Assembly: GCA_964609085.1 (NCBI GenBank)
Contig: CAZSRZ010000001.1
Coordinates: forward strand, 658-64,657
Length of the DNA stretch: 64,000 nucleotides
Reading direction: 5' to 3'
DNA from: an uncultured bacterium
Lineage (GTDB): Bacteria; Armatimonadota; SYMT01
Shown: positions 11,233-24,364 of the stretch, piece after piece
Position numbering within the stretch: the first letter of the stretch is position 1
Layout: every line of letters begins with the position of its first letter
Made by a program: the position numbers and the translations under genes
Notes under the pieces: generated by a model
Told to the model about the DNA's origin: nothing
Seen by the model: only the letters and a program-made list of their open reading frames with translations
The model's database searches: none

Positions 11233-13026
11233 CTAGGCCCAGCGCGCGAACTCCAGCGGAGCGTCCACGGTCGCCTCCGGCTCTGACGCGACCATTTCCG
11301 CCCCCGCGGCGCCGAAGCGCCAGTTGGTGTGGGCTCGAGTTTGGCGATCCAACTCCAGCGCCCGCTGCCACTCTCGCCACAGGTATTCTTTCTTGACGCC
11401 GAGTTGGATGGCGTCCCAGGGGAGAATCTCCTCGAACGACCGCGGCCGGCAAACGTACCAATCCGGGTCGATGCCGGTCTCGCGGAACGCGGCCCGCCAG
11501 TCGCCTCCGTTGTTGTGCGCGGCCAACAACGCCGCCCCGACTCGGCGATCCGCGAGGGAAAGCACCCCCTGCACGTGCGATCCACGGACGCTGTCGACCG
11601 TGTACTCCAACTGTCTCGAGGCGTGCCGGACCGCGCGGCCCACGAGCTTGAGACGCCGCTCGACTTCGGAAGGCTGCATGGTACCCGCCCACTGGTAGGC
11701 CGTGTGGGGCTTGGGAACAAAGGGGTGCATTGTCAGCGCCACCTTGCGGAAAGGGCCCTGCGCGAGCACGGCCGCCGAGAGATCGGCAATCGCCAGCAGG
11801 TCTTCCTCGGTTTCGCCCGGTAGGGCGACGATGTAGTAGAGCTTGATCCGCTCCACGCCGTTTGAGGCGCAGCGACGGGCCGCAACGAGCACATCTTCGT
11901 CGGTGACGTGCTTGCGAGCGACGTAGCGCAACCGTTCGGAACCGGTCTCGGGCGCGATGGTGACCGTCTTCTGACCGGCCTCCCCGATGGCACATGCCAC
12001 GCTCTCGCTCAAGTTATCCGCGCGCAGGCTGGAAAGGGAGACGCTGCCGGCCTGCTCCGTGAGGCTTCGCGTTATCTGCACTAGCTGTTTGTGGTCGGTA
12101 AGGCTGCTGCCCACCAACCCGACTCTCTGCGGTGCGGGTCCGCTGTCCGCTGCCATCCGGAACTCCCGATCGAGTTGCTCCGGCGGCGTGTAGCGAACCG
12201 GGCGGTAGGCGTAGCCCGCGAAGCAGAACCTGCAGCCCTGGCCGCAGCCTCGGGCTGCCTCCGCCAGCAGCATGTTTCCGAATTCGGTGTTCGGCGTGAC
12301 GATCTGCGCGCTGGTGTTGTAGGCCTCTAGATCTCTAGCCACCCAGCGGCGCACCGGAAACGGCACCTCGGGATGCGGCACGATCTCGGCGATGGTCCCA
12401 TCCGATGCGTAGCGATGCTCGTAGAGAGACGGCACGTAGATGCCCTGCACCGAGGCGAGATCCAACAAGAGGGCGTGCTTGTCGTCCCACCCCTGCGTGC
12501 AGCGGTGCCGCTGCATGATGGGGATGATGAGATCGGTCAGCCCTTCCGCTTCTCCGATGACGAAAGCGTCGATGAAGCCCGCCATCGACTCCGGGTTCAC
12601 CCAGGGCGCGGGACCACCGGCGATCACGAGGGGGTAGTTCTCGTCCCGTTCGTGTGAGTGCAGCGGCAGCCCGGCCAGCTCGAGGATCTTGAGGACGTTC
12701 AGGTAGTCAAGTTCAAACGAGATGGAGAACCCGAGAACATCAAAGGTATTCAGGGGTCGCTGGCTCTCGTACGCGAAGAGGGCGGTGTGGCTGCGGCGAT
12801 GCTCGGCCTCGTCGACGGGGTCCGGCAAGAACGCCCGCTCGCAGACGGTATCGTCACGCTCGTTCAACAGCCGATAGACGAGTTGGAACCCGAGGTTCGA
12901 CATCCCCAGCCGGTAGCTGTTGGGAAAGGTCAGGGCGAAGCGCAGGAGATCGCCGTGCGGCTTGGTGATGGTGCCGCGTTCGTCTGCGAGCAGCCTCCGC
13001 ACGTTCTGGATAAGCTTGTACGACAT
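11233..13026 (-). CDS. Radical SAM protein with B12-binding-like N-domain, fused to a DUF2344-like C-terminal domain (TIGR03960/TIGR03936-like architecture)
   Basis: CGQGCRFC radical SAM motif. About 598 aa from the internal Met MSYKLIQN. The N-terminal half resembles a B12-binding/radical SAM core and the C-terminal part an uncharacterised conserved domain. Confidence 0.75.
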   Translation of the reverse strand: MSYKLIQNVRRLLADERGTITKPHGDLLRFALTFPNSYRLGMSNLGFQLVYRLLNERDDTVCERAFLPDPVDEAEHRRSHTALFAYESQRPLNTFDVLGFSISFELDYLNVLKILELAGLPLHSHERDENYPLVIAGGPAPWVNPESMAGFIDAFVIGEAEGLTDLIIPIMQRHRCTQGWDDKHALLLDLASVQGIYVPSLYEHRYASDGTIAEIVPHPEVPFPVRRWVARDLEAYNTSAQIVTPNTEFGNMLLAEAARGCGQGCRFCFAGYAYRPVRYTPPEQLDREFRMAADSGPAPQRVGLVGSSLTDHKQLVQITRSLTEQAGSVSLSSLRADNLSESVACAIGEAGQKTVTIAPETGSERLRYVARKHVTDEDVLVAARRCASNGVERIKLYYIVALPGETEEDLLAIADLSAAVLAQGPFRKVALTMHPFVPKPHTAYQWAGTMQPSEVERRLKLVGRAVRHASRQLEYTVDSVRGSHVQGVLSLADRRVGAALLAAHNNGGDWRAAFRETGIDPDWYVCRPRSFEEILPWDAIQLGVKKEYLWREWQRALELDRQTRAHTNWRFGAAGAEMVASEPEATVDAPLEFARWA

Positions 13027-13138
13027 TCGCCGGTGTTCGTCTCGATCTCCGCTGTCCGGGGCGGACCCCCTAGTTAAACACGGCCGACCCGGCTCGTCCA
13101 CAAAGTCCCGGCACCTAGCGCATTCCTCTCGCACGCCG

Positions 13139-14365
13139 ATGCCCAGCCCGCGCCCTCCCCAGCAGCCGACGTATCCCGGACAGGGGCTTGACGTCCGATC
13201 GCCGACTCTCACCCGCGTGGCGCTCTACGTGTGGCTCGCAGTCGCGTTCGTGCTGCTGTGGCTGCACTTTTCGTCCGTCCGTATCTATCTGGATTGGCGG
13301 ATCTACTCGCTCTACTTCCTGGCCGTGGCCGGCGTCGCCGGGCGCTACCTCACAGGCATCCGACACGGGAACGCAAGATGGCACCGCGTGGTATTCGACA
13401 CGCTTTCCATTCTCTTCATCGCGCTGGGAGTCAATCAGACAGGCGGCATCCACAGCGACCTGTGGCTGCTCTACTTCATCTTCGTGATCGCCGAAACGCT
13501 TGCGGCCAGCGCCCGGGGCTTCCTCATCACTGATGTGGCCGCAGTGTTGAGCTACGTCATCGCCACCTGGCCGGCGCAGCCGGCGGTGCTGAACGAGTAC
13601 TTCGAACGACTGATCACCCGGGTCTTCTTCCTCGTGCTCGTTGCTCTGATCGCGCGAGCGCTGGCCGCCCAGGAACGCCAGAAACAGCAAGACCTGGCTG
13701 CCCTGACGGAAGCCCTCTCAGTCAGCGAAGAGCGGCGGCGGCTGGCCCGGGACCTCCACGATGGGGTGGGACATGTGTTGACGCGAGTGATCCTGAGCCT
13801 CGAGCTCGGAAGGCGTATGCTCCGACAGCCCGTCGCTGAAGCATCTGTCGTCGCGGCTGAAGAGTGTGTGGCTCAGCAGGCGACAGCGCTGCGTGGCGCG
13901 ATGGAGGAGATGCGGCAATTGGTGGCCACCCTCCGTACCGACACGGCCGCGTTCCAGATCGGCGCGGCGGTGCTGCAGATGGCTGAGCAGCTCTCTCAGC
14001 CGGGCCATCTCGAAGTGAAATCAGACATCACCACTCAATCGATCCCCCTTTCACCGCACCGCCAGTATCACCTGTCGCGCGTGATCCAGGAGGCGCTGAC
14101 GAATTGCGTTCGGCACTCCGGTGCGACGCTGGCCACCGTGGAGCTGAAGGTGGAAGAGGATCCGCTGGGGGAACCCGTCGTGGTGGCGACGGTGACGGAC
14201 AACGGGAAGGGCTTTGATCCCGAGGCACCCGTGCAGCGCCCAGGTCATGGTCTGACCGGCATGCGCGAACGCCTCGCGCCCTATCAGGGCCAGATTGAGA
14301 TCCGCTCCGCACCCGGGGCGGGAACGACACTACGTGCGAGGTTGGGCGGCGATCTGCCGGTCTAA
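13139..14365 (+). CDS. Sensor histidine kinase, NarL/DesK type (HisKA_3), multi-TM N-terminal sensor
   Basis: Five to six N-terminal TM helices, an H-box DLHDGVGH, and an HATPase region (DNGKGF, GHGLTGMRER). The start Met was chosen at MPSPRPP; the track ORF begins further upstream inside the divergent radical SAM gene. Confidence 0.8.
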   Translation: MPSPRPPQQPTYPGQGLDVRSPTLTRVALYVWLAVAFVLLWLHFSSVRIYLDWRIYSLYFLAVAGVAGRYLTGIRHGNARWHRVVFDTLSILFIALGVNQTGGIHSDLWLLYFIFVIAETLAASARGFLITDVAAVLSYVIATWPAQPAVLNEYFERLITRVFFLVLVALIARALAAQERQKQQDLAALTEALSVSEERRRLARDLHDGVGHVLTRVILSLELGRRMLRQPVAEASVVAAEECVAQQATALRGAMEEMRQLVATLRTDTAAFQIGAAVLQMAEQLSQPGHLEVKSDITTQSIPLSPHRQYHLSRVIQEALTNCVRHSGATLATVELKVEEDPLGEPVVVATVTDNGKGFDPEAPVQRPGHGLTGMRERLAPYQGQIEIRSAPGAGTTLRARLGGDLPV

Positions 14366-14384
14366 TGGATGAAGGGTTGAGCTG

Positions 14385-15032
<648 letters not shown>

Positions 15033-15039
15033 GTGCTCC

Positions 15040-15408
15040 GTGAACCCGCTCACCGTGTTCCAAATGCTCACTATCGGCCTGGTCGCCGGCACTGCGGGCG
15101 GCATGTTCGGCATCGGCGGGGGGCTGATCATGGTCCCGGCCCTGATGATCGTCGCCGGCCAGGAGCTGAAGCTGGCCACCGGCACGTCCCTGGCTGCCCA
15201 ACTCTTGCCGGTCGCCCTGTTCGCCGTGATGGAGAAGTACCGCCTAAAAGAGGTGGATTTTCGCTTCGCGGGGCTGATGGCCGTCGGACTACTCGCCGGC
15301 ACGCTCCTCGGAGTGAAGTTGAGCACCCCCATCGACAAGGATGTGATGAAGAAGCTCTACGGCGGCTTCCTGCTCCTGGTGGGGATCCGCTACCTCTTCT
15401 TCAAGTGA
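15040..15408 (+). CDS. Half-length TauE/SafE (DUF81)-like membrane protein (4 TM)
   Basis: 122 aa. Gly-rich TM motif (GGMFGIGGGLIMVPAL) typical of sulfite-exporter TauE/SafE repeats, but only one 4-TM repeat is present. Confidence 0.65.
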   Translation: MNPLTVFQMLTIGLVAGTAGGMFGIGGGLIMVPALMIVAGQELKLATGTSLAAQLLPVALFAVMEKYRLKEVDFRFAGLMAVGLLAGTLLGVKLSTPIDKDVMKKLYGGFLLLVGIRYLFFK

Positions 15409-15779
15409 CCCGGTTCGCTCTCCACAGGCACGTCTTCCCGAACCACGCTTCCGCGGAAGGTGCTGTGTCGAGAGATGGCATCCGCCAGCCGTTGGGGCGT
15501 GGTACGCTGGGGGTCGTACGCCACCCAGAGCGATTCGTCTCGCGTATCGGAGCGTGCGTCAACAAATCCATCTATGCGCTGGAGCGCTGCCCGGGCCTGC
15601 GGGTCACAGCTTCCCTGGCAATTCATCCCCTCCGCGCGGAGCAGGGTGACGGCTGTGCCGGGGGCGAGGGATCCGGGCGCGAACGGCGGACCGGCCGGCG
15701 TGCACCCCCCCACCCCGAAGACGGCGGCCAGCCCAGCGAGCCACCTTCGCGGCATCCCCGGCCACCTGCGATCACTCAT
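15390..15779 (-). CDS. Putative lipoprotein with HMA-like heavy-metal-binding motif
   Basis: Internal Met start MSDRRW. Signal peptide ending in the lipobox-like GVGGC. GMNCQGSC resembles the HMA GMxCxxC motif but with CxxxC spacing. Overlaps the upstream kinase gene's stop. Confidence 0.45.
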   Translation of the reverse strand: MSDRRWPGMPRRWLAGLAAVFGVGGCTPAGPPFAPGSLAPGTAVTLLRAEGMNCQGSCDPQARAALQRIDGFVDARSDTRDESLWVAYDPQRTTPQRLADAISRHSTFRGSVVREDVPVESEPGHLKKR

Positions 15780-17226
15780 CGTCGGCACCGTTCCGGTCAT
15801 CCACGGGCAGGGGGAGCCGGATGGTGAACGCACTGCCCTCTCCCGCCGAACTGCTGGCCGCAACGCCGCCCCCGTGCGCTTCCACTGCCCATCGGGTGAT
15901 GCTGAGGCCGAGACCGGACCCGCCTGCAGCCCGCGCTCGCCCGCTGTCCACACGGTAGAAGCGTTCGAAGATGTGCGGGAGGTGTTCCTCGGCGATGCCG
16001 ATGCCGGAATCTCTCACTTCCAGCGTCACCTCCTCGCCCGTCTGTCGAGCCGAGACCGTGACTCTCCCCCCAGGCGGCGTGTACTTGATCCCGTTGCTCA
16101 CGAGATTACCGAGGGCCTGGCTAAGCCACAGCGGGTCGCCCGCCACCACCAGTGGCGCCACCTCGCCGACGACGAGGGCGACCCCGGCCCGATCCGCCAT
16201 CCCAGCGTGGCCGCGCACGCTCTGTTCCACCAGCCACTCAATCTCAACCGGTTCTTCCTTGATCAACGCCTGGCCGGCATCGGCGCGCGCGAGCAACAGC
16301 AGGCTCTCCACGATCCCGGACATCCGCTCGGCGGCATCGAGAATCGCTCCCAGAGACTTGCGGCTCTGCTCCGGTGTAAGCTCGCCGAGCAAGGCTACCT
16401 CTGCTTCCCCGCGGATCGCGGTGAGCGGGGTTCGCAGCTCGTGCGAGGCGTCGGCGCTGAACTGACGAACCTGCCGAAAGCTCTTGTCCAGCCGTGAGAT
16501 CATCTGGTCGAAAGCGTGCGCAAGCCTCCCAATCTCATCCACCGGACCCCCGTGTCGGATGCGCCGTTCCAGATTACTGCTCTGGATCTCGAGAGCGAGG
16601 CGTGTGAGGTCGTCCACGCGCCGAAGCGCTCGGTCGACGACGATCCAGTTGCCGACGAGGGCCAGCAGGAAAACCAGTGGGGTGATGATCAGCAGCAACC
16701 ACCCAGCGCGTTGGAGCGCGGCCTCTACACCTTCCAGGCTGGTCCCCGCCTGGACCATCAGGGGCACGTCGGCTCCCAGTCGCACGGGCACCGTCACGAT
16801 CCGCACCGGGTGCTCCCCCAACCCACGAACGGTCTCGAGCGTGGTTAGGCCGCGCTTGCCGCGCGCGAGGGCATCCGCGCTCACGGGTAGTTTCTGGGAA
16901 GCCAGTCCGTCCGACCACTCCCGGGGGAAGCCCTCCGTGTCCACGATCTGGACGTAGCGCCCCCAGGTCCGGATGTCATTACTGAGGAACTTCTGGCCGC
17001 GAATCATCTCCGGTGCCAGGCGAGGAGCGTCGCTCGCCCGACGGATTCGGAAGAGCGTCGCAGCCATCTGTCGGGCGGTTATGTCGCCGTACTCTTCGAG
17101 CGCAGCATCCGCGCGAGAGTGCAGCACCCTGATGAGCAGGGCATAGGTGAGCCCTGCCAGTGCCAGCAGCGTGATCGCCATCAGCGCTGCGTGCCACAGA
17201 CCCAGGTGGGCCCGCAATCCACGCAC
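15772..17226 (-). CDS. Two-component sensor histidine kinase (CusS/CzcS-like: periplasmic sensor, HAMP, HisKA, HATPase)
   Basis: Two TM segments flanking a roughly 140-aa periplasmic domain. H-box SHELRTPL, N-box NLVSNGIKYT and G-boxes DSGIGI, GGSGLGLSI. Confidence 0.9.
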   Translation of the reverse strand: MRGLRAHLGLWHAALMAITLLALAGLTYALLIRVLHSRADAALEEYGDITARQMAATLFRIRRASDAPRLAPEMIRGQKFLSNDIRTWGRYVQIVDTEGFPREWSDGLASQKLPVSADALARGKRGLTTLETVRGLGEHPVRIVTVPVRLGADVPLMVQAGTSLEGVEAALQRAGWLLLIITPLVFLLALVGNWIVVDRALRRVDDLTRLALEIQSSNLERRIRHGGPVDEIGRLAHAFDQMISRLDKSFRQVRQFSADASHELRTPLTAIRGEAEVALLGELTPEQSRKSLGAILDAAERMSGIVESLLLLARADAGQALIKEEPVEIEWLVEQSVRGHAGMADRAGVALVVGEVAPLVVAGDPLWLSQALGNLVSNGIKYTPPGGRVTVSARQTGEEVTLEVRDSGIGIAEEHLPHIFERFYRVDSGRARAAGGSGLGLSITRWAVEAHGGGVAASSSAGEGSAFTIRLPLPVDDRNGADDE

Positions 17227-17231
17227 GGATG

Positions 17232-17906
17232 CTAACCGTCCTCCCGCAGCACGTAGCCCACGCCCCGGACGGTGTGCAGGAGCCGTGATTCATCGCGGGC
17301 GTCAACTTTCTTCCGGAGGAAGTTCATGTAGACCTCGAGGACGTTAGATGGCGTCTCGAAATCGTAGCCCCACACCCCCTCGAGCAGCTCCTTGCGGGTG
17401 AGAATCTTCTCTGGGTACCGCATCATGTACTCCAGCAGCGCGTATTCTTTGTTCGTGAGTTCTACCCGGCGCTTACCCCGGGTCAACGTGCGACTGTTGG
17501 CGTCCAGAGTCAGGTCTGCGTAAGTAACCACGGGCACGCGCACGGCCGTGGCTCGTCGGAGCAAGGCTCGCAGCCGCGCGAGCAGTTCCTCAAAGGAAAA
17601 CGGTTTGGGCAGGTAGTCGTCGCAACCGGCGTCCAGCCCGGCAATCCGATCCCCGATCTCGCCGCGTGCGGTCAATGCGAGGACCGGTATGTCCAACTTT
17701 CGACGCCGAATCTCGCGGACCACCGCAAGACCGTCCATCCCCGGAAGCATGAAGTCCAGGATTACGCCGTCGAACCGCTCGGCGTCGACGAGGGCCAGCG
17801 CGTCCTCGCCGCTTGTGACGTGGTCCACTCGAAAGCCTTGTGACTCAAGTCCGCGGCAGACGAAGCCCGCGACAGCCTCTTCGTCCTCGACCACTAGAAG
17901 TCGCAC
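17232..17906 (-). CDS. Response regulator, OmpR/PhoB family (REC + winged helix)
   Basis: REC motifs (LLVVEDE, D..ILDFMLPGMDG, KP) and a C-terminal winged helix (TRKELLEGVWGYDF...VRGVGY). Confidence 0.9.
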   Translation of the reverse strand: MRLLVVEDEEAVAGFVCRGLESQGFRVDHVTSGEDALALVDAERFDGVILDFMLPGMDGLAVVREIRRRKLDIPVLALTARGEIGDRIAGLDAGCDDYLPKPFSFEELLARLRALLRRATAVRVPVVTYADLTLDANSRTLTRGKRRVELTNKEYALLEYMMRYPEKILTRKELLEGVWGYDFETPSNVLEVYMNFLRKKVDARDESRLLHTVRGVGYVLREDG

Positions 17907-17933
17907 TCTGCCCCCTCCCTCTTGCGGCCCCGT

Positions 17934-19610
17934 TTAGCTTCCGGTGCCCTCGACCAATGTAATCGTCCCGTCGACGCGCTCGCAAGCGTAGGCCTCCACC
18001 GCCCCGCTCGGCCACCGCACTTCGATACGGTCCACGACGCTTGCTGCACCCAGCCCGAACGTCGGCGAAGTGTCGCTCTGCGAAAGATAGCCGGAACCGC
18101 ACCTGACTGTGCGCGTCTGCACACGGCCGCCTGTCCAAACACGCACCGCTGCGCCGATGGCGGCTCGGTTCTGCGACCGGGACGATAGTCGAACGCGCAC
18201 CCAGTGATGCTGCGGATGGCCGGCCATCCGCAGCAGAGCCGGAGAGCCGCCATTCGTTGTGACCAGGACATCCAGGTCGCCGTCGCCATCGACGTCACCA
18301 ACAGCGACGCCACGAGCCACTCTCGGAGTGCGCAGCGCACCGCTGCTGAGGCTGAGGTCCTGGAATCCGCCGCCCGGCAGAGCCCGGAAGAGCATCCCTG
18401 GTTGGGAGTACGTCGAACTGCCGCGCACGGCGATGTCGTCCTGGATGTGCCCATTGGCGACGAGGATGTCCTGCAGCCCATCGAGATCGGCATCGAAGAA
18501 GCAATTGCCGAACCCGAGGTACTTCTGGCTGGGTGTGCCTACGCCGACCCGGGCAGCGACATCCATAAACAACCCCGAGTCGTCCCGCCGGTAGAGGCTG
18601 AGCTGTTCGCCGGTGAAGTTGGTGATCAAGATGGCCTCCCGTCCGCTGTTGTCATAGTCGGCCGCATCGATCCCCATCCCTGCTTTCGCCATTCCGCCCT
18701 CGGCAACGGCGATCCCGGCCTGCACGGCCACTTCTTTGAAGCGGCCATTGCCCTGGTTGTGAAAGAGGAAGTTGCGCACCGTATCGTTGGCGACGGCGAG
18801 ATCCGGCCAGCCATCCCGATCAAAGTCGAGGAGGACGGCTCCCAGGGCCTTGGCTCCGGGGATGTGCACTCCCGCCTGCCGGCTCACATCCACGAAACCT
18901 GTGCCTTTGTTCATCCAGAGTGTGCAACTGTCGCCCTCATACTGATCTGGGCGAGAGTAGGACTTCCGCACGCCATCCAGTGAGAAGAACAGGTCGCCCG
19001 CGGGGCTCCAACGCACGTAGTGGGTGACAAAGAGGTCTAACCGTCCGTCGCGGTTGTAGTCGAGCCAGACCGGCGCGGCAGCCCAGCCCCGGTCCGACAG
19101 CCCGACGGTCGCTGTCACATCGGTGAACCCCGTCGCGGTCTGGCGATAGAGGCGTACACCGGCCAGGGTAGTCAGGCACAGGTCGAGCCGGCCGTCAGCA
19201 TCGTAGTCGGCCAACGCGATGCCCATCCCGAACTGTCCGACCGGCATGTTCCAGGCAGCGGAGACGTCGGTGAATCGCTGCCCGCCCCGATTGAGAAAGA
19301 GTCGGGCTCGGCCGGGTGGTCCGCTGCCGCCGGGCCACGATGACGAATCCACCAGCACCACGTCGAGCCGGCCGTCACCGTCCACGTCGGCCAGGGCACA
19401 CCCGGAACCCATCGTCTCCGGCATCCAACGAGAGCCGGCGGCCCCGTTGGCGTGCTGGAACTTGATGCCCGCAGCGGCCGTGATCTCCTCGAAGACGATG
19501 GGTACCGGTGGTGAGATGGGCTCTCTGGCCACCGGCGGCCCGGTCGGCCGACACGCAGATAGGCATCCCATCAAGCCTAGCCCGACGATGACACGAGCGG
19601 CCGGCTTCAT
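17934..19610 (-). CDS. CRTAC1/ASPIC-UnbV family lipoprotein (FG-GAP/VCBS-like beta-propeller repeats)
   Basis: Lipoprotein signal (LMGCLSAC). Repeated D.DGDG..D motifs (ADVDGDGRLDVV, ADYDADGRLDL, LDYNRDGRLDLF, LDFDRDGWPDL, GDVDGDGDLDVL). A C-terminal UnbV-like segment. Confidence 0.8.
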   Translation of the reverse strand: MKPAARVIVGLGLMGCLSACRPTGPPVAREPISPPVPIVFEEITAAAGIKFQHANGAAGSRWMPETMGSGCALADVDGDGRLDVVLVDSSSWPGGSGPPGRARLFLNRGGQRFTDVSAAWNMPVGQFGMGIALADYDADGRLDLCLTTLAGVRLYRQTATGFTDVTATVGLSDRGWAAAPVWLDYNRDGRLDLFVTHYVRWSPAGDLFFSLDGVRKSYSRPDQYEGDSCTLWMNKGTGFVDVSRQAGVHIPGAKALGAVLLDFDRDGWPDLAVANDTVRNFLFHNQGNGRFKEVAVQAGIAVAEGGMAKAGMGIDAADYDNSGREAILITNFTGEQLSLYRRDDSGLFMDVAARVGVGTPSQKYLGFGNCFFDADLDGLQDILVANGHIQDDIAVRGSSTYSQPGMLFRALPGGGFQDLSLSSGALRTPRVARGVAVGDVDGDGDLDVLVTTNGGSPALLRMAGHPQHHWVRVRLSSRSQNRAAIGAAVRVWTGGRVQTRTVRCGSGYLSQSDTSPTFGLGAASVVDRIEVRWPSGAVEAYACERVDGTITLVEGTGS

Positions 19611-21829
19611 GGGAGCAATTGCAAGCGCGTGACTGTCACCGGGGCGGTCGGTCGGAGGAGGTCGGGTGCCGGTCCGAGCGGGAGCAGGACGTCATACAGG
19701 ACCTCCTCCCGCCGCGCTTCGGTCAATTCGTTGAGGCGCTGCCGGCTGAGCATCAGTTGGTAGTGAGCCGCCGCATTGAGGGGGTCTACAGCCAGGGCGG
19801 CGCTGAACTGACGTCCGGACTCCGCATTGCGCAGACGGGCGAGTTCGGTAAGCCCCATCTCCATCCGCAGCCGCACATCCCGAGGGTAGCGCCGAAGAAG
19901 CTCCCCAAAGATGGCGGCGGCGCGGTCGGGTTGCCCCGCTCGCCGTTCAACGGCCGCTTCCCACGCCAGCCCCCGGTCCCGAGATCCGGATCGAGCTGCG
20001 GCCCGGAAGGCCGAGAGGGCGGCGGGCAGATCGCCCTGTGCCAGAAAGACCTGCCCGAGCGCCAGGTTCGCCTCGTCCGCGTGGCCCGGCATCGCCCCGC
20101 CCCGTAGTGCCTCGTGCAGGACCCTCACCGCCAGCGGATAGTCCCGGACCGTGGCCAGGGCCTCCCCGTAACTCCTCCACCGGCCCGGCACGTTGATGGG
20201 AGCGGCACCCGGGTAGATCGTTCGCTCCGCCAGCACCTGGTCGGTGGCCTCACCATACCGCGCGTGCCGATGCATCCGGATGCTCATCCTACCGACCCCC
20301 CGGTCCGGTAACTTGAGCTGGAACCGGGCCAGGTCGGCACCGCCGGCCGGAATCCTCCTGGTGGGGCCAAAGCCGGTGGCGCGGTCCAGTTCCCACCTCC
20401 GGACGGGCGCTCGCGAGGGGTCCGTCAGGATGGTGTTCCACACCGTGCGCGGACCTGCGGCCTGCGTCCTGAGGATCCGCCCCTCGGCATCCGCGAGTTC
20501 CACATCCAGCCACGCCCCCCGTGCGGAGGGGATCCCGGTGGGGAATGTGTGCCCGATGGCGGCGTTCGACACAGTTACATCGAGCCAGACCTCCCGGCCG
20601 GCATAGGCATCCAACCCGACTTCGGCCGGCACCGGCATCGAACCTGATCTCGTCGGCAGCCGCATGAAGGAGTCGAGAAGCAGGCCCTGCTGCCGTGAGG
20701 CCGGCCTGTCTCGGTGACAGGCGACACAACTCCGCACCGTCCGAGCAGCGCCCGCGTGGAAGATGCTCTCTCCCGAGTACGGGCTCGCCTGCCAGTCACC
20801 AAACTCATCGCTGAGCATGATGTAGTGGAACCCATTCTGCGCGAGGGACATGCCCTTGCGGTGACAGCCGGCGCAAAGGCGTCCGCCGGCTGACACCGCG
20901 CCGACTGACCACCGCCGCGCGTGCTGCGCCGGGGCGATACGAGCCTCCAACTCGATCTCCGACCGACTTGGGGCCGCCAGCACCCGGAGCGATCCTGCAC
21001 CGTACGCGGGCCCCGTCTCGACTGCGCCATGGCAGTCTGTACACTCGATCCTGACCGCCGCATGTTTTGGCGTGTCCAGACGTGATGGCCGATGGCAGCC
21101 CTCGCACCAGGCGGCGCTTTCCGCACCGTTCCTGGTCGAGAAACTGCGGAGCGCAGCTTCGTAGGGGGCGCGTTCGCCCCGACCGTGGGTGAGCGCACCG
21201 CCGGTGCAGTCCGCAGGCGAGTGACAGCCTGACCCGGCACAACTCGCAACCGTCGAGCCTTTGGCCTGCCGGGCCGATGGAAAATGCGACACCCGCGACT
21301 GATCGGGGACTGTCGCGGTCAGGAATTCATAGACAGAATGGGATTCGTACGGAAGGTCGATGGACTGGGCCCCGGCTTTCCCCCGAAGCGGCGCGAGGAT
21401 GGCAAGCAATCCCGCGCACAGGCCGATCGCCAGGCGCATCGGCCGTCGCCGTTCCTTCACACACCAACTCCCCACCAGCACGAGCAGGCCAAGTTGGATG
21501 TGGAGTTCGAGACTTGCTCCCCTATCCCTACCTCGGAACGCGGTGGCGGCCCCCAGGCACAGGAAGACGACCAGGGCTCCCGCGAGCAGTGCGCTCCGTG
21601 TCGGCGGCGAAGCGCGCGGCCAGGCGGACCGGATACAGAGGACCAGTCCAACGGCGTGCGCAAGCATCAGGCTGCCAATCAGCGTAAACGGTGCACCTCT
21701 GGGTAGCAGCGCCAGCCCGTAGGCAGGGAGCAGCGCGAGGCAGGCGGACACCGCCATTCCGCCTCGAATCTTCGCTCGGCCCCCCTCGGTTCGCCGCTTA
21801 CCGGCGTGCTCGCCCACACCGGACCTCAT
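19607..21829 (-). CDS. Membrane-anchored multiheme c-type cytochrome with C-terminal TPR repeats
   Basis: About 5 N-terminal TM helices. Canonical CxxCH motifs CEGCH, CTDCH, CAGCH and CVACH, plus one variant CAGSGCH (Cx4CH). A C-terminal TPR-like helical region. Overlaps the CRTAC1 start by 4 nt. An alternative start is Met25 (MAVSACL) at 21757. Confidence 0.8.
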   Translation of the reverse strand: MRSGVGEHAGKRRTEGGRAKIRGGMAVSACLALLPAYGLALLPRGAPFTLIGSLMLAHAVGLVLCIRSAWPRASPPTRSALLAGALVVFLCLGAATAFRGRDRGASLELHIQLGLLVLVGSWCVKERRRPMRLAIGLCAGLLAILAPLRGKAGAQSIDLPYESHSVYEFLTATVPDQSRVSHFPSARQAKGSTVASCAGSGCHSPADCTGGALTHGRGERAPYEAALRSFSTRNGAESAAWCEGCHRPSRLDTPKHAAVRIECTDCHGAVETGPAYGAGSLRVLAAPSRSEIELEARIAPAQHARRWSVGAVSAGGRLCAGCHRKGMSLAQNGFHYIMLSDEFGDWQASPYSGESIFHAGAARTVRSCVACHRDRPASRQQGLLLDSFMRLPTRSGSMPVPAEVGLDAYAGREVWLDVTVSNAAIGHTFPTGIPSARGAWLDVELADAEGRILRTQAAGPRTVWNTILTDPSRAPVRRWELDRATGFGPTRRIPAGGADLARFQLKLPDRGVGRMSIRMHRHARYGEATDQVLAERTIYPGAAPINVPGRWRSYGEALATVRDYPLAVRVLHEALRGGAMPGHADEANLALGQVFLAQGDLPAALSAFRAAARSGSRDRGLAWEAAVERRAGQPDRAAAIFGELLRRYPRDVRLRMEMGLTELARLRNAESGRQFSAALAVDPLNAAAHYQLMLSRQRLNELTEARREEVLYDVLLPLGPAPDLLRPTAPVTVTRLQLLP

Positions 21830-21847
21830 CCTACTCGGCCCAGCCGA

Positions 21848-22783
21848 TTACGGATTCGGGAGGATCCGGTGACCCGGCACACCGAGATCGAGGCGGAACA
21901 GGCCGCCGGGCTCCCCACCAGTCGCGTAGAGCGTGGCATTGGCAGGACCGGCAAAGCAGAGGTTGCTCGTGGTGACATTTCCGCCGTCATACGTCGCCAG
22001 CAGCTTTCCCTGCGGACTCAGCACATGGATCGACTTCATCCCGTAGTGTGCCACCCACAGCCGTCCATCCTGGTCCAACGCCATTCCGTCCGGCTGGTTG
22101 AACTCCTTGCCCGGTTTCTTCTGATTCCGGGGCAGATTGGCGAAAACTCGGGGCTCTGTCTCGGGCACGCCGGTCGCCTTGAGCGGGATCATCAGGACGC
22201 GGTTTTCTTGACTCTCCGCCACGTACAGACGCTTCCGGTCGGGCGAAAGCACGATGCCGTTCGGGAAGTTCAAGCCGGTGGCCACCGGCCGCATGGTGCC
22301 GTCGAAGGAGACGTAGTGGACTGCGCCTGTCGACTTCACGCTGTCGGTGAAGTAGAAGCCTCCCGGCAGGTCCAGCGTGAGGTCGTTGGGGGTCCGAATC
22401 TCAAGATCTCCGGATTTCCCCGTGGCGACGGTGCCAAGCACTTTCCCCTCGGCGCTCAGCCGCAGCACGGCCTTCCGGCTTCCATCGCAAAGCAGATGGT
22501 CTCCATTTGGGAGGACCTTGTGCCCGTTCGGCGCGCCTGTTTCCGCCCAATCCGACACACGACCGTCCGGGGCGACTCGGGTGACCGTTTTTCCGTGCGA
22601 GAAGAAGAGAGCGCCCGCGCGATCCACCACCACGCCCTCGGTGTAGTCCCCGGTGATCACGACGGGTACCGGCTTGATGCGGCCGACCGGCGGCAGTGGA
22701 GTTGTCGCCGACGCCATCACGGCGGCGGACAACGCGACCGTTGCCAGGGAGAGTTTCAACATCGCGATCCGGTGAGCGGTCAT
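21848..22783 (-). CDS. SMP-30/gluconolactonase/LRE-like six-bladed beta-propeller protein (secreted)
   Basis: Signal peptide. Conserved NG and DG blocks (NDLTLD, PNGIVLSPD, QPDGMALDQDGRLWVAHYG) typical of the family. Confidence 0.75.
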   Translation of the reverse strand: MTAHRIAMLKLSLATVALSAAVMASATTPLPPVGRIKPVPVVITGDYTEGVVVDRAGALFFSHGKTVTRVAPDGRVSDWAETGAPNGHKVLPNGDHLLCDGSRKAVLRLSAEGKVLGTVATGKSGDLEIRTPNDLTLDLPGGFYFTDSVKSTGAVHYVSFDGTMRPVATGLNFPNGIVLSPDRKRLYVAESQENRVLMIPLKATGVPETEPRVFANLPRNQKKPGKEFNQPDGMALDQDGRLWVAHYGMKSIHVLSPQGKLLATYDGGNVTTSNLCFAGPANATLYATGGEPGGLFRLDLGVPGHRILPNP

Positions 22784-22918: not shown

Positions 22919-24364
22919 ATGTCCCGACTCAGCCGTCGCGAACTCTTCGAAGAGTCGTTGTTCGCCGCCGCAATCGCGGCCACTGCCGGCGCCGCTCCCG
23001 CTGCGGCGGCCGAGACGAGATCGGCCCGAGTGGTGGGCCCCAACGAGCAGCTTCGCATCGCGGTCATCGGCGTCCGCAGCCGCGGCAAGGACCACCTCAG
23101 TGGCTACGCCAAGATGAACGACGTGACAGTGGCCGCCGTGTGCGATGTTGACCTGAGCACGGCGCCGGGGGCGGTGAAGATCCTCACGGACGCCGGCAAG
23201 CCCGCCCCACGCGTGGTCCAGGACCTGCGCCGGATCATGGAAGACAAGGACATCGACGCCGTCTCCATCGCCACCTGCAATCACTGGCATGCGCTCGCGG
23301 CAATCTGGGCGATGCAAGCAGGCAAGGATGTCTACGTCGAGAAGCCTGTGAGCCACAACGTCCGCGAGGGCCGGGCGATGGTCGAGGCAGCCCGGAAGTA
23401 CAGCCGCATCTGCCAGGCCGGCACGCAGATCCGCAGTATGAAGGGCTCCCAGGAGGCGATCGCCTACGTGCACGCGGGGAAGATCGGCAAGGTATCCGTG
23501 GCACGGGGCCTCTGCTACAAGCCCCGCCTCAGCATCGGCAAGCTGGCCGCGGGTTCCATTCCCGCCGGGGTGGACTTCGATCTGTGGCTAGGCCCTGCGC
23601 CGCTGCGGCCCTTCCACCAGAACAAGTTTCACTACAACTGGCACTGGCAGTGGGACACCGGCAACGGAGATCTGGGCAACCAGGGGATCCACCAGATGGA
23701 CGTTGCCAGGTGGGGGCTGGGAAAATCGTCGCTCCCGAAGCGGGTGGTCGGCATGGGAGGACGCCTCGGTTACGAAGACGACGGCGAGACACCCAACACG
23801 CACGTGGCGGTGATGGACTACGGGGACAGCGAGCTCATCTTCGAGACGCGAGGGCTAAAGACGGGCGATTACCGCGGTGCACGTGTCGGCAACGTCTTCC
23901 ATGGCTCGGACGGCTATGTGGTGCTCACGAGCTACACGGGCGGAGCCGCCTTCGACAAGGACGGCAATATGGTCGCGACGTTCTCAGGCGGAGGGGACCA
24001 CTACCGTAACTTCGTTGACGCCGTGCGGAGTCGCAAGCCGGAGCTCCTGACCGGCGACATCGAGGAAGGGCACCTCTCGAGCGCGCTGTGCCACCTCGGC
24101 AACATCTCCTACCTCCAGGGGGAGTGGACGGCCCTCTCCGAACTCCCGCGTGTTGCGACAGCCAGTGAGGCGGTTCGAGAGACGTTCGAGCGCATGCGGC
24201 AGCACCTCACGGAGAACGGTGTGAATCCGGCAACGGATCGATACCGGCTGGGGCCCCAGTTGGAGATCCGGCCCGGCAAGGAAGACTTCGGCAGGTCCCA
24301 CGTTGCAAACGCGATGCTGACTCGCCCCTACCGCCCGGGCTTCGTTGTGCCGGAAAAACCGTAG
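22919..24364 (+). CDS. Gfo/Idh/MocA family oxidoreductase with twin-arginine (Tat) signal
   Basis: Tat motif SRRELF. Rossmann start IAVIGVRSRGKDH. The family's characteristic EKP motif (YVEKPVS). Confidence 0.85.
   Translation: MSRLSRRELFEESLFAAAIAATAGAAPAAAAETRSARVVGPNEQLRIAVIGVRSRGKDHLSGYAKMNDVTVAAVCDVDLSTAPGAVKILTDAGKPAPRVVQDLRRIMEDKDIDAVSIATCNHWHALAAIWAMQAGKDVYVEKPVSHNVREGRAMVEAARKYSRICQAGTQIRSMKGSQEAIAYVHAGKIGKVSVARGLCYKPRLSIGKLAAGSIPAGVDFDLWLGPAPLRPFHQNKFHYNWHWQWDTGNGDLGNQGIHQMDVARWGLGKSSLPKRVVGMGGRLGYEDDGETPNTHVAVMDYGDSELIFETRGLKTGDYRGARVGNVFHGSDGYVVLTSYTGGAAFDKDGNMVATFSGGGDHYRNFVDAVRSRKPELLTGDIEEGHLSSALCHLGNISYLQGEWTALSELPRVATASEAVRETFERMRQHLTENGVNPATDRYRLGPQLEIRPGKEDFGRSHVANAMLTRPYRPGFVVPEKP

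Follow-up and report, generated by a model that had tools for sequence, protein, structure and literature searches.

The stretch of DNA analysed here (the window) comprises 64,000 nt of assembly GCA_964609085.1 (contig CAZSRZ010000001.1, positions 658 to 64,657 of the forward strand; Armatimonadota; SYMT01) and has a G+C content of ~65% throughout. Six open reading frames (ORFs), all read in the same direction on the minus strand, occupy positions 15390 to 22783 and encode a membrane-anchored multihaem cytochrome c, a CRTAC1/ASPIC-UnbV lipoprotein, a two-component system (TCS) and two accessory proteins. An initial annotation had put them forward as a single metal-responsive redox operon of six co-directional genes separated by tiny gaps or overlaps. 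From first to last, the genes are:

21848-22783, minus strand: SGL, 311 aa, secreted SMP-30/gluconolactonase/LRE-like beta-propeller; first gene
19607-21829, minus strand: cytochrome-TPR, 740 aa, membrane-anchored pentahaem cytochrome c with an immunoglobulin-like (Ig-like) domain and a TPR arm; core gene 1
17934-19610, minus strand: CRTAC1, 558 aa, CRTAC1/ASPIC-UnbV lipoprotein; core gene 2
17232-17906, minus strand: response regulator (RR), 224 aa, OmpR family
15772-17226, minus strand: sensor histidine kinase (HK), 484 aa, CusS/CzcS type
15390-15779, minus strand: small ORF, 129 aa, HMA-fold CxxxC lipoprotein; last gene

Coordinates and close packing were as annotated: 18 nt separate SGL from the cytochrome gene, the cytochrome stop overlaps the CRTAC1 start by 4 nt, 27 nt lie between CRTAC1 and the RR gene and 5 nt between the RR and HK genes, and the start of the HMA-like lipoprotein gene overlaps the kinase stop by 8 nt (likely start ATG at 15779, with an in-frame ATG at 15800 also possible). 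At a related locus, L088, all three junctions from the cytochrome gene through the kinase gene overlap. With its shared direction, gaps too short for separate promoters and a core order kept elsewhere, the cluster has the properties of an operon, and its genes are probably co-transcribed. Numerous plus-strand ORFs across the same region are antisense artefacts of the high G+C content; where they seem “conserved” in other loci, they follow the conservation of the minus-strand genes.

A conserved cytochrome and CRTAC1 gene pair

Cytochrome loci were collected from a genome scan (2 loci in Armatimonadota metagenome-assembled genomes) and a metagenome scan (80 further loci). Clustering at 90% cytochrome identity gave 63 groups, 45 of which were evaluable (≥2 kb of DNA downstream of the cytochrome gene); in 40 of these 45, termed distant loci, the cytochrome was <33% identical to that of the window. 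A CRTAC1 gene adjoined the cytochrome gene in 34 of the 45 evaluable loci (33 on the same strand and downstream within ≤3 kb, 1 on the opposite strand) and in 29 of the 40 distant ones. When all ORFs were clustered over 87 loci, only two families were broadly shared, that of the cytochrome (72 loci) and that of CRTAC1 (52 loci), and the broadly conserved unit is thus a two-gene pair, cytochrome-TPR plus CRTAC1. The six-gene system did not hold up as a unit, only these two genes being broadly kept; among eight complete modules for which DNA was available (window, L001, L002, L006, L007, L008, L088 and L092), the HMA-like gene occurred in four and SGL in two. No paper describing the cytochrome/CRTAC1 pairing was found, and the only bacterial CRTAC1 context found in the literature is a CRTAC1 gene lying between hydrazine-synthase-like genes. 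The arrangement of the pair varies: in one subfamily, found on related metagenome contigs (L036-L038, L043, L044, L048, L051 and L053), same-strand CRTAC1 genes lie on either side of the cytochrome gene, and seven loci (L032, L047, L058, L061, L069, L078 and L081) carry additional CRTAC1 paralogues close by on the opposite strand.

The window's CRTAC1 protein had been annotated as a lipoprotein full of D-x-D-G-D-G repeats, and this was borne out by a Pfam scan in which FG-GAP_3 (7e-40, 135.9 bits, six stretches) and UnbV_ASPIC (PF07593; 4.8e-18, 65.3 bits against a cut-off of 23.4) were matched and no domain of any other kind was found, as well as by its lipobox (LMGC/LSAC) and seven DxDxDG loops. 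Residues 241 to 540 were matched by the solved structure of human CRTAC1 (9ETN) at 3e-20. Over 62 partner sequences the seven loops were ≥95% conserved, and H53, K254, H388, R433 and Y508 were also kept. A crude lipobox pattern matched 26 of the 62 partners, an unreliable count given that their N-termini were not properly delimited.

The cytochrome carries the five haem sites originally reported, one Cx4CH (CAGSGCH, residue 197) and four CxxCH (residues 242, 263, 319 and 368). Word-index searches with the cytochrome returned 7 and 13 proteins only; an exhaustive HMMER search, in which a profile of the haem-plus-Ig region was run against 1.84 billion representatives, corrected the family size to 2,618 clusters at 50% identity for E ≤ 1e-3 (263 for E ≤ 1e-30). 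Most of the 150 best representatives combine ~5 N-terminal transmembrane (TM) helices with five haem sites (usually Cx4CH for the first, then four CxxCH) and TPRs, and many have a GHxFPTG loop. Across 57 diverse relatives, all five haem sites, H303 and H427 were invariant and H215 was kept in 56.

Five hydrophobic segments precede the haem domain. Lysine and arginine residues total 15 on the side predicted to be cytoplasmic, against 4 in the periplasmic loops, and the positive-inside topology therefore predicts that the haem domain lies outside the cytoplasm, in the periplasm; a cytoplasmic position of the haem motifs, raised as an objection by the initial annotation, is not what the charges indicate. 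AlphaFold2 (AF2) returned an unusable model from a 5-sequence input (pLDDT 50.9) and a confident one from the 57-sequence alignment (pLDDT 85.3, pTM 0.85). In the latter, the annotated N-terminal helices and TPR tail were recovered as five TM helices (residues 15-41, 48-72, 76-99, 104-123 and 130-150), followed by a helical region (160-380), a beta-sandwich (383-540, strands 383-538) and TPR helices (548-715), which correspond to the following segments of the gene:

21380-21787, minus strand: five-helix membrane domain (residues ~15-150), from hydropathy, positive-inside count and AF2
20690-21352, minus strand: periplasmic alpha-helical pentahaem cap (residues ~160-380), with the five haem motifs, H215 and H303
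20210-20683, minus strand: Ig-like beta-sandwich stem (residues ~383-540), with the invariant loop N422-x-x-x-G-H427-x-F-P-x-G
19685-20188, minus strand: periplasmic TPR arm (residues ~548-715), proposed CRTAC1 docking surface

Searches of the membrane domain against Pfam and PDB sequences matched no family or chain, cytochrome b families included. Within it, H58 (TM2) and H110 (TM4) were conserved in every sequence having the domain (49/49 and 51/51, respectively), and a separate alignment of the TM region (A5; mean column identity 29%) had these two histidines as its only invariant columns. Both sit a few residues inside the periplasmic ends of their helices. With no other invariant residue in the membrane domain, the two histidines suggest a bis-His haem b site and, through it, a link to quinol; the five-helix domain may be an undescribed haem-b-binding membrane domain.

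In the periplasmic part, H215 and H303 are candidate distal haem ligands. H427 of the stem loop is invariant, and N422, G426, F429, P430 and G432 are ≥90% conserved. The cap and stem together hold three conserved non-motif histidines for five haems (a fourth, H689, is in the TPR arm), so that the coordination of one or two haems may be unusual or open. Pfam models matched across the 57 family members were Cytochrome_C554 (34/57), MtrC/MtrF_II-IV (21/57) and PF23914 (TPR_CcmH_CycH; 39/57), TPR models being prone to cross-match each other freely. A search of the AF2 model against the PDB with Foldseek gave as its best match 5ZE8, the pentahaem c552 of Thermochromatium tepidum (E 4.8e-7, 419 columns, TM-score 0.53 on the target), all remaining top matches being TPR proteins. 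Judged from the model, the periplasmic part has the fold of the pentahaem c552/MccSep (ExtKL) family; at the sequence level, a haem-domain profile run against the PDB returned chance-level haem-motif matches only (5ZE8 at E 1.8). At L004:8344-12214, a distant relative of the cytochrome (P0006, 21% identical) stands without CRTAC1 beside it; the gene ahead of it is weakly matched by a vanadium-chloroperoxidase-like model (VCPO_2nd), and a nonribosomal peptide synthetase cluster adjoins.

The two-component system and the accessory genes

The response regulator carries Response_reg and Trans_reg_C domains, with TIGR01387 as its best NCBIfam model (234.6 bits against a cut-off of 279.2). The kinase was matched best, and over its full length (residues 4-472 to model positions 4-457), by TIGR01386 (252.2 bits against a cut-off of 292.55), and is built of a TM helix (14-32), a ~145-aa periplasmic domain, a second TM helix (179-197), HAMP, HisKA and HATPase. 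Of the complete CusRS-type system that had been annotated, the architecture and the heavy-metal identity of the best full-length models stood, while the scores fell short of the curated cut-offs. The TCS family is shared with the Escherichia coli HprRS pair, which responds to oxidants.

The order cytochrome, CRTAC1, RR and HK, all on one strand, recurred in 10 non-redundant loci (the window, L001, L002, L006, L007, L008, L088, L092 and the contigs of kinase homologues P0232 and P0214), over which the cytochromes were 29-39% and the kinases 54-69% identical. Compared with their window counterparts, the proteins of L001, L002/L003, L006, L007 and L008 were 36-39% (cytochrome), 59-62% (CRTAC1), 65-69% (RR) and 63-66% (HK) identical; at L092 the cytochrome was 29% and CRTAC1 46% identical to the window's. 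RR orthologues (65-72% identical) held the same position in all TCS-bearing modules. The flanks of the modules were non-syntenic, except that L006 shares the upstream oxidoreductase gene and L007 shares SGL. The initial annotation had named, as a point that would count against it, a failure of the pair and the TCS to be co-conserved anywhere else; they were co-conserved, in the same order and on the same strand, among unrelated flanks. Its proposed combination of cytochrome-TPR, CRTAC1, TCS and HMA-like genes was recovered in part, the cytochrome, CRTAC1, RR and HK genes recurring in all 10 loci and the HMA-like gene in half of the eight modules searched as DNA. Within modules L001-L008 and L088 the cytochrome diverges fastest (36-39% identity, against 58-62% for CRTAC1, 65-72% for the RR and 63-66% for the HK).

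A full-length OmpR-type regulator was found in 0 of the 40 distant loci. The OmpR/CusS-type TCS is thus outside the general module and is coupled to it in one Armatimonadota-centred lineage. A search for kinase homologues returned ~45 clusters at 61-69% identity and many more at 48-58%. When loci were approached from the kinase, all four homologues at ≥54% identity to the window HK lay in the module (P0184 from L088, 65%; P0214, 56%; P0232, 55%; P0226 from L092, 54%), whereas none of the three at ≤53% did (P0220, 53%; P0263, 52%; P0250, 51%). Since the boundary of this kinase clade coincides with the presence of the module, the kinase orthologue group and the module travel together, and this match, combined with the gene order conserved in 10 loci, argues for functional coupling. 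The nearest kinase relatives outside the module were not in metal-resistance operons, and the “metal-responsive” label given to the cluster is unproven. A tblastn search of plasmids with the kinase gave only unannotated matches on Ralstonia megaplasmids. One paralogous kinase outside the cytochrome/CRTAC1 module (L091:10535-12292, minus strand; 52% identical to the window HK) stands back-to-back with a 585-aa gene that has Ni_hydr_CYTB and faint multihaem c matches (a CbcL-like build), with RND-type MFP and OEP genes nearby.

The last gene of the cluster encodes a small protein in which both the lipobox (VGGC26) and the GMNCxxxC motif (GMNC54QGSC58) of the initial annotation are present. It was matched by the metal-binding domains of ATP7B, CopA and CopZ (phmmer, 3.5e-13 to 6e-4) with a one-residue insertion in the metal loop, GMNCQGSC being CxxxC and not GMxCxxC, and, weakly, by NF041115 (2.6e-9) and MerP (3e-5). 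Against Pfam HMA (PF00403) the window protein scored 12.5 bits, below the threshold of 24.8, while orthologues with selenocysteine (Sec) codons, read as Cys, passed it (39.2 bits for that of L007, 41% identical). NF041115, described as a UxxU metal-binding protein in a 2026 review, has a cut-off of 95 bits, which neither the window protein (37.1) nor the Sec-form orthologues (36.8-42.1) reached, the spacing being three residues and not two. The gene follows the kinase gene in the window, L006, L007 and L088 and was undetected in L001, L002, L008 and L092; none was called on the P0232 and P0214 contigs, for which gene calls only were available and a Sec form could escape calling. The three orthologues carry an in-frame TGA at both Cys positions (UxxxU) and end at TAA or TAG:

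15606-15620, minus strand: C54-Q-G-S-C58 codons of the window, putative metal- or redox-active pair, aligned with TGA...TGA in L006, L007 and L088
L007:16223-16237, L006:16754-16768 and L088:10763-10777: UxxxU motif, aligned with window 15606-15620

Alternation of Cys and Sec at both positions marks these two residues as a functional pair. The codon alignment points to the window gene as the Cys form of a UxxxU selenoprotein, in what would be an unannotated double-selenocysteine lipoprotein family related to NF041115. In the Sec forms, the first TGA is followed by DNA capable of folding into a hairpin, the 3' arm of which is not kept in the Cys form; these hairpins were weakly better than shuffles (z of -1.9 and -1.3), and an Rfam scan of the L007 TGA region found no selenocysteine insertion sequence (SECIS) family. 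At L088 the gene caller left a 66-aa stub of the HMA-like gene; because Sec forms are missed or truncated by gene callers, the protein is under-counted in databases. L006 carries two tandem HMA-like genes after the kinase gene (15956-16414 and 16415-16948), the first lacking both Cys/Sec positions (…LKVPGLKAESERVE…) and the second being the UxxxU form.

SGL, at the other end of the cluster, is the secreted SMP-30-like beta-propeller that had been annotated (PF08450 at 2.8e-37 over nearly the full profile, 129.1 bits against a threshold of 26.3; N-terminal hydrophobic signal at residues 6-24). It was shared with L007 only (73% identical, same position) and is an accessory first gene, an occasional passenger outside the conserved core.

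Genes on both flanks, the TauE side and the Gfo/Idh/MocA side, are functionally unrelated to the cluster. A plus-strand ORF at 15040-15408 (122 aa) aligns to positions 2-109 of the 237 in the TauE/SafE sulfite-exporter profile, its first half only, and is either a half-size TauE or a truncated gene; it converges on the cluster, its 3' end overlapping that of the HMA-like gene by 19 nt. A second, unrelated TCS lies just past the cluster (12920-15032, plus strand; HisKA_3-type kinase and LuxR/GerE-type regulator), and on the other side a Gfo/Idh/MocA oxidoreductase gene diverges from the cluster at 22919.

A two-layer interpretation and competing explanations

We favour a reading in two layers, to which we assign a probability of roughly 0.55; its gene-level claims are very probably correct, and the mechanism laid upon them is tentative, at somewhat less than even odds. 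In the widespread layer, the cytochrome and CRTAC1 would form a periplasm-facing redox complex with its anchor in the cytoplasmic membrane. Its membrane domain would hold one bis-His haem b near the outer face (H58/H110) and exchange electrons with the quinone pool, electrons would pass through the five c-haems of a c552/MccSep-type cap set on the Ig-like stem, and the TPR arm would hold the Ca-binding CRTAC1 propeller as a substrate-binding or catalytic surface. In the second layer, confined to the Armatimonadota-centred clade, the pair would be joined to, and co-transcribed with, the dedicated OmpR/CusS-type TCS, which presumably autoregulates the operon when a soft metal or metalloid, or else an oxidant, is present in the periplasm, and the Cys/Sec HMA-fold lipoprotein of about half of the modules would bind or relay this cue or the substrate. 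The TCS family, a Sec/Cys protein with soft ligands and a polysulfide-reducing relative of the fold together favour, by analogy, a soft metal, metalloid or chalcogen as substrate or cue, which is the weakest step of the scheme. The invariant H427 of the stem loop may occupy a position comparable to that of the stem Sec/Cys of MccSep. A bolder version, in which the pair is an undescribed class of quinol-linked periplasmic oxidoreductase, widespread in soil bacteria and with CRTAC1 as its substrate-binding or catalytic subunit, and in which the Armatimonadota form acts on a soft metal, metalloid or chalcogen sensed by the dedicated kinase and handled by the Cys/Sec HMA lipoprotein, is on balance doubtful.

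Several observations weigh against this interpretation. The case for haem b and a quinol link consists of two invariant histidines in a TM domain with no Pfam or PDB relative. Outside the haem motifs there was no conserved Cys in the 57 relatives, and no extra Cys or Sec near the haems; a MccSep-type Sec/Cys active site in the window family is ruled out by this result. Both the RR and the HK fall below the curated heavy-metal cut-offs, and the sensor domain of the kinase, compared over six orthologues and not aligned directly to CusS, has a single invariant His (in EHPVR) and no conserved Met or Cys. CRTAC1 was not adjacent in 11 of the 45 evaluable loci, from which it follows that the cytochrome can work without a neighbouring partner gene, and the HMA-like and SGL genes are each absent from at least half of the eight DNA-searched modules. 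Promoter and terminator scans found sites no more numerous than in shuffled sequence and were uninformative. Inspection by eye of the regions upstream of four modules revealed no common RR box.

It could be argued that the cluster is a chance meeting of the cytochrome/CRTAC1 pair with an independent copper/silver homeostasis unit, a CusRS-like TCS and an HMA chaperone that regulates genes elsewhere. A TCS was adjacent in 0 of the 40 distant loci, the best matches of the TCS are heavy-metal models, the small protein has the HMA fold and JGI labels many of the kinase orthologues “heavy metal sensor kinase”, all of which speak for this view. However, four genes keep their order and strand in 10 non-redundant loci with differing flanks, the gaps leave no room for a terminator followed by a promoter (27 nt in the window, overlaps in L088), kinases on the near side of the 54% boundary are always in the module and those beyond it never, and no module holds an efflux pump or P-type ATPase gene; we therefore regard chance adjacency as quite unlikely. 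That the cytochrome and CRTAC1 are sensory accessories, feeding a redox or ligand signal to the kinase and not forming an enzyme, is also unlikely. In its favour are the dedication of the TCS orthologue group to the module, the typical role of TPR arms as protein-protein adaptors and a sensor domain free of obvious metal ligands. Against it, the pair has a much wider distribution than the TCS and in most cases no regulator next to it, and five c-haems with a possible haem b exceed the redox capacity that sensing would need.

Two further explanations concern the cytochrome itself. Kinship of its fold with c552, which the literature ties to nanowire cytochromes and ExtKL, invites the idea of an extracellular electron-transfer conduit or a polymerizing nanowire, as proposed for the pentahaem cytochromes (PHCs) of cable bacteria and the archaeal AvECN. 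A protein anchored by five TM helices and bearing a TPR arm is ill suited to this role, ExtKL has since been shown to be a soluble polysulfide reductase, and neither the window cluster nor the families shared over 87 loci include a porin or outer-membrane cytochrome gene; we judge this highly unlikely, and a porin-cytochrome conduit was rejected outright for want of a porin gene in the cluster or among the shared neighbours. The match of PF23914 to 39 of the 57 family members would allow a CcmI/CycH/NrfG-type factor for haem handling or cytochrome c maturation, chaperoning an apoprotein, perhaps CRTAC1. Yet TPR models cross-match freely, CRTAC1 has no CxxCH, the cytochrome is the only window ORF with two or more such motifs, and the protein itself has five invariant c-haem sites and a c552-type Ig-like stem; the probability of a maturation role is accordingly minimal, and a Ccm-type chaperone was rejected on the ground that the protein is itself a pentahaem cytochrome.

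These findings matter beyond this cluster. Neither the bacterial CRTAC1-family proteins nor animal CRTAC1, which is used as an osteoarthritis marker, is known to have an assigned function, and a conserved, translationally coupled multihaem partner offers a lead that CRTAC1 propellers may work with a redox chain. Should the pair prove to be a quinol-linked oxidoreductase class, the bacterial relatives of animal CRTAC1 would for the first time be placed in a functional context. With 2,618 clusters at 50% identity, the cytochrome's periplasmic-domain family is large as well as uncharacterized, and residues so strictly invariant open it to direct tests. Since in this lineage a dedicated TCS and a Cys/Sec lipoprotein are attached to the pair, the inducer of the operon should point to the substrate.

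Comparison with known systems

Each part of the cluster belongs to or resembles a known family, and its kin are membrane-anchored multihaem redox modules. Geobacter CbcL (a fusion of b-type membrane and multihaem c domains), ImcH and NrfH are membrane-anchored multihaem quinol dehydrogenases, and the window protein resembles these families in pairing a membrane domain with conserved His and a periplasmic multihaem c domain, a build that would suit exchange with the quinone pool. In contrast to them, its TM domain has no detected Pfam or PDB homology and a single His pair, and the TPR arm and CRTAC1 partner are unique to the window family.

Published work groups c552 with Geobacter ExtKL and the pentahaem cytochromes of cable bacteria, and a 2025 preprint describes MccSep, a pentahaem selenoprotein of Geobacter sulfurreducens, as a polysulfide-reducing selenoenzyme, a soluble homotetramer whose pentahaem cap and Ig-like stem are structurally comparable to c552. 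From the GSU2936 antibody named in the methods of that preprint, we infer that MccSep is the ExtKL protein. These relatives place both electron carriers and an enzyme in one fold family. The window protein shares with c552, MccSep and PHCs an alpha-helical cap with five c-haem sites and, after it, an Ig-like beta-sandwich, with 5ZE8 as its best structural match. Those proteins are described as soluble, however, whereas it adds a five-helix membrane domain and a C-terminal TPR arm; the first haem site of its family is usually Cx4CH, it has no significant sequence match to any PDB chain, and C239 and U325 of MccSep (the Cys ligand to haem 2 and the Sec/Cys in the stem) have no conserved counterpart in the family.

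Human CRTAC1 and bacterial ASPIC-UnbV proteins share the FG-GAP Ca-binding propeller and UnbV_ASPIC domain of the window's CRTAC1, which, unlike the human protein, is a bacterial lipoprotein often translationally coupled with an adjacent multihaem cytochrome gene. The TCS is like CusRS, CopRS, CzcRS and HprRS in its OmpR-type regulator and in a kinase with two TM helices, a periplasmic domain, HAMP, HisKA and HATPase; it differs in scoring below the cut-offs, in having no conserved Met/Cys/His cluster in the sensor, and in that its genes are inside a cytochrome/CRTAC1 operon and not beside efflux or oxidase genes. The small lipoprotein has the HMA domain and the two ligand residues in the first loop of MerP, CopZ and NF041115, is exported in a manner similar to periplasmic MerP, and alternates between Sec and Cys as NF041115 does. 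It departs from all three in its spacing (CxxxC/UxxxU against CxxC/UxxU) and in scores below curated cut-offs, and from MerP and CopZ in its context, a cytochrome/CRTAC1/TCS operon and not a mer or cop operon. The fusion of TM domain, pentahaem cap, Ig-like stem and TPR arm, the CRTAC1 pairing and the TCS/lipoprotein operon had no description in the literature searched. What appears new, then, is the fusion itself, its near-obligate pairing with CRTAC1, and the lineage-specific operon that adds a dedicated TCS and a UxxxU/CxxxC lipoprotein to the pair.

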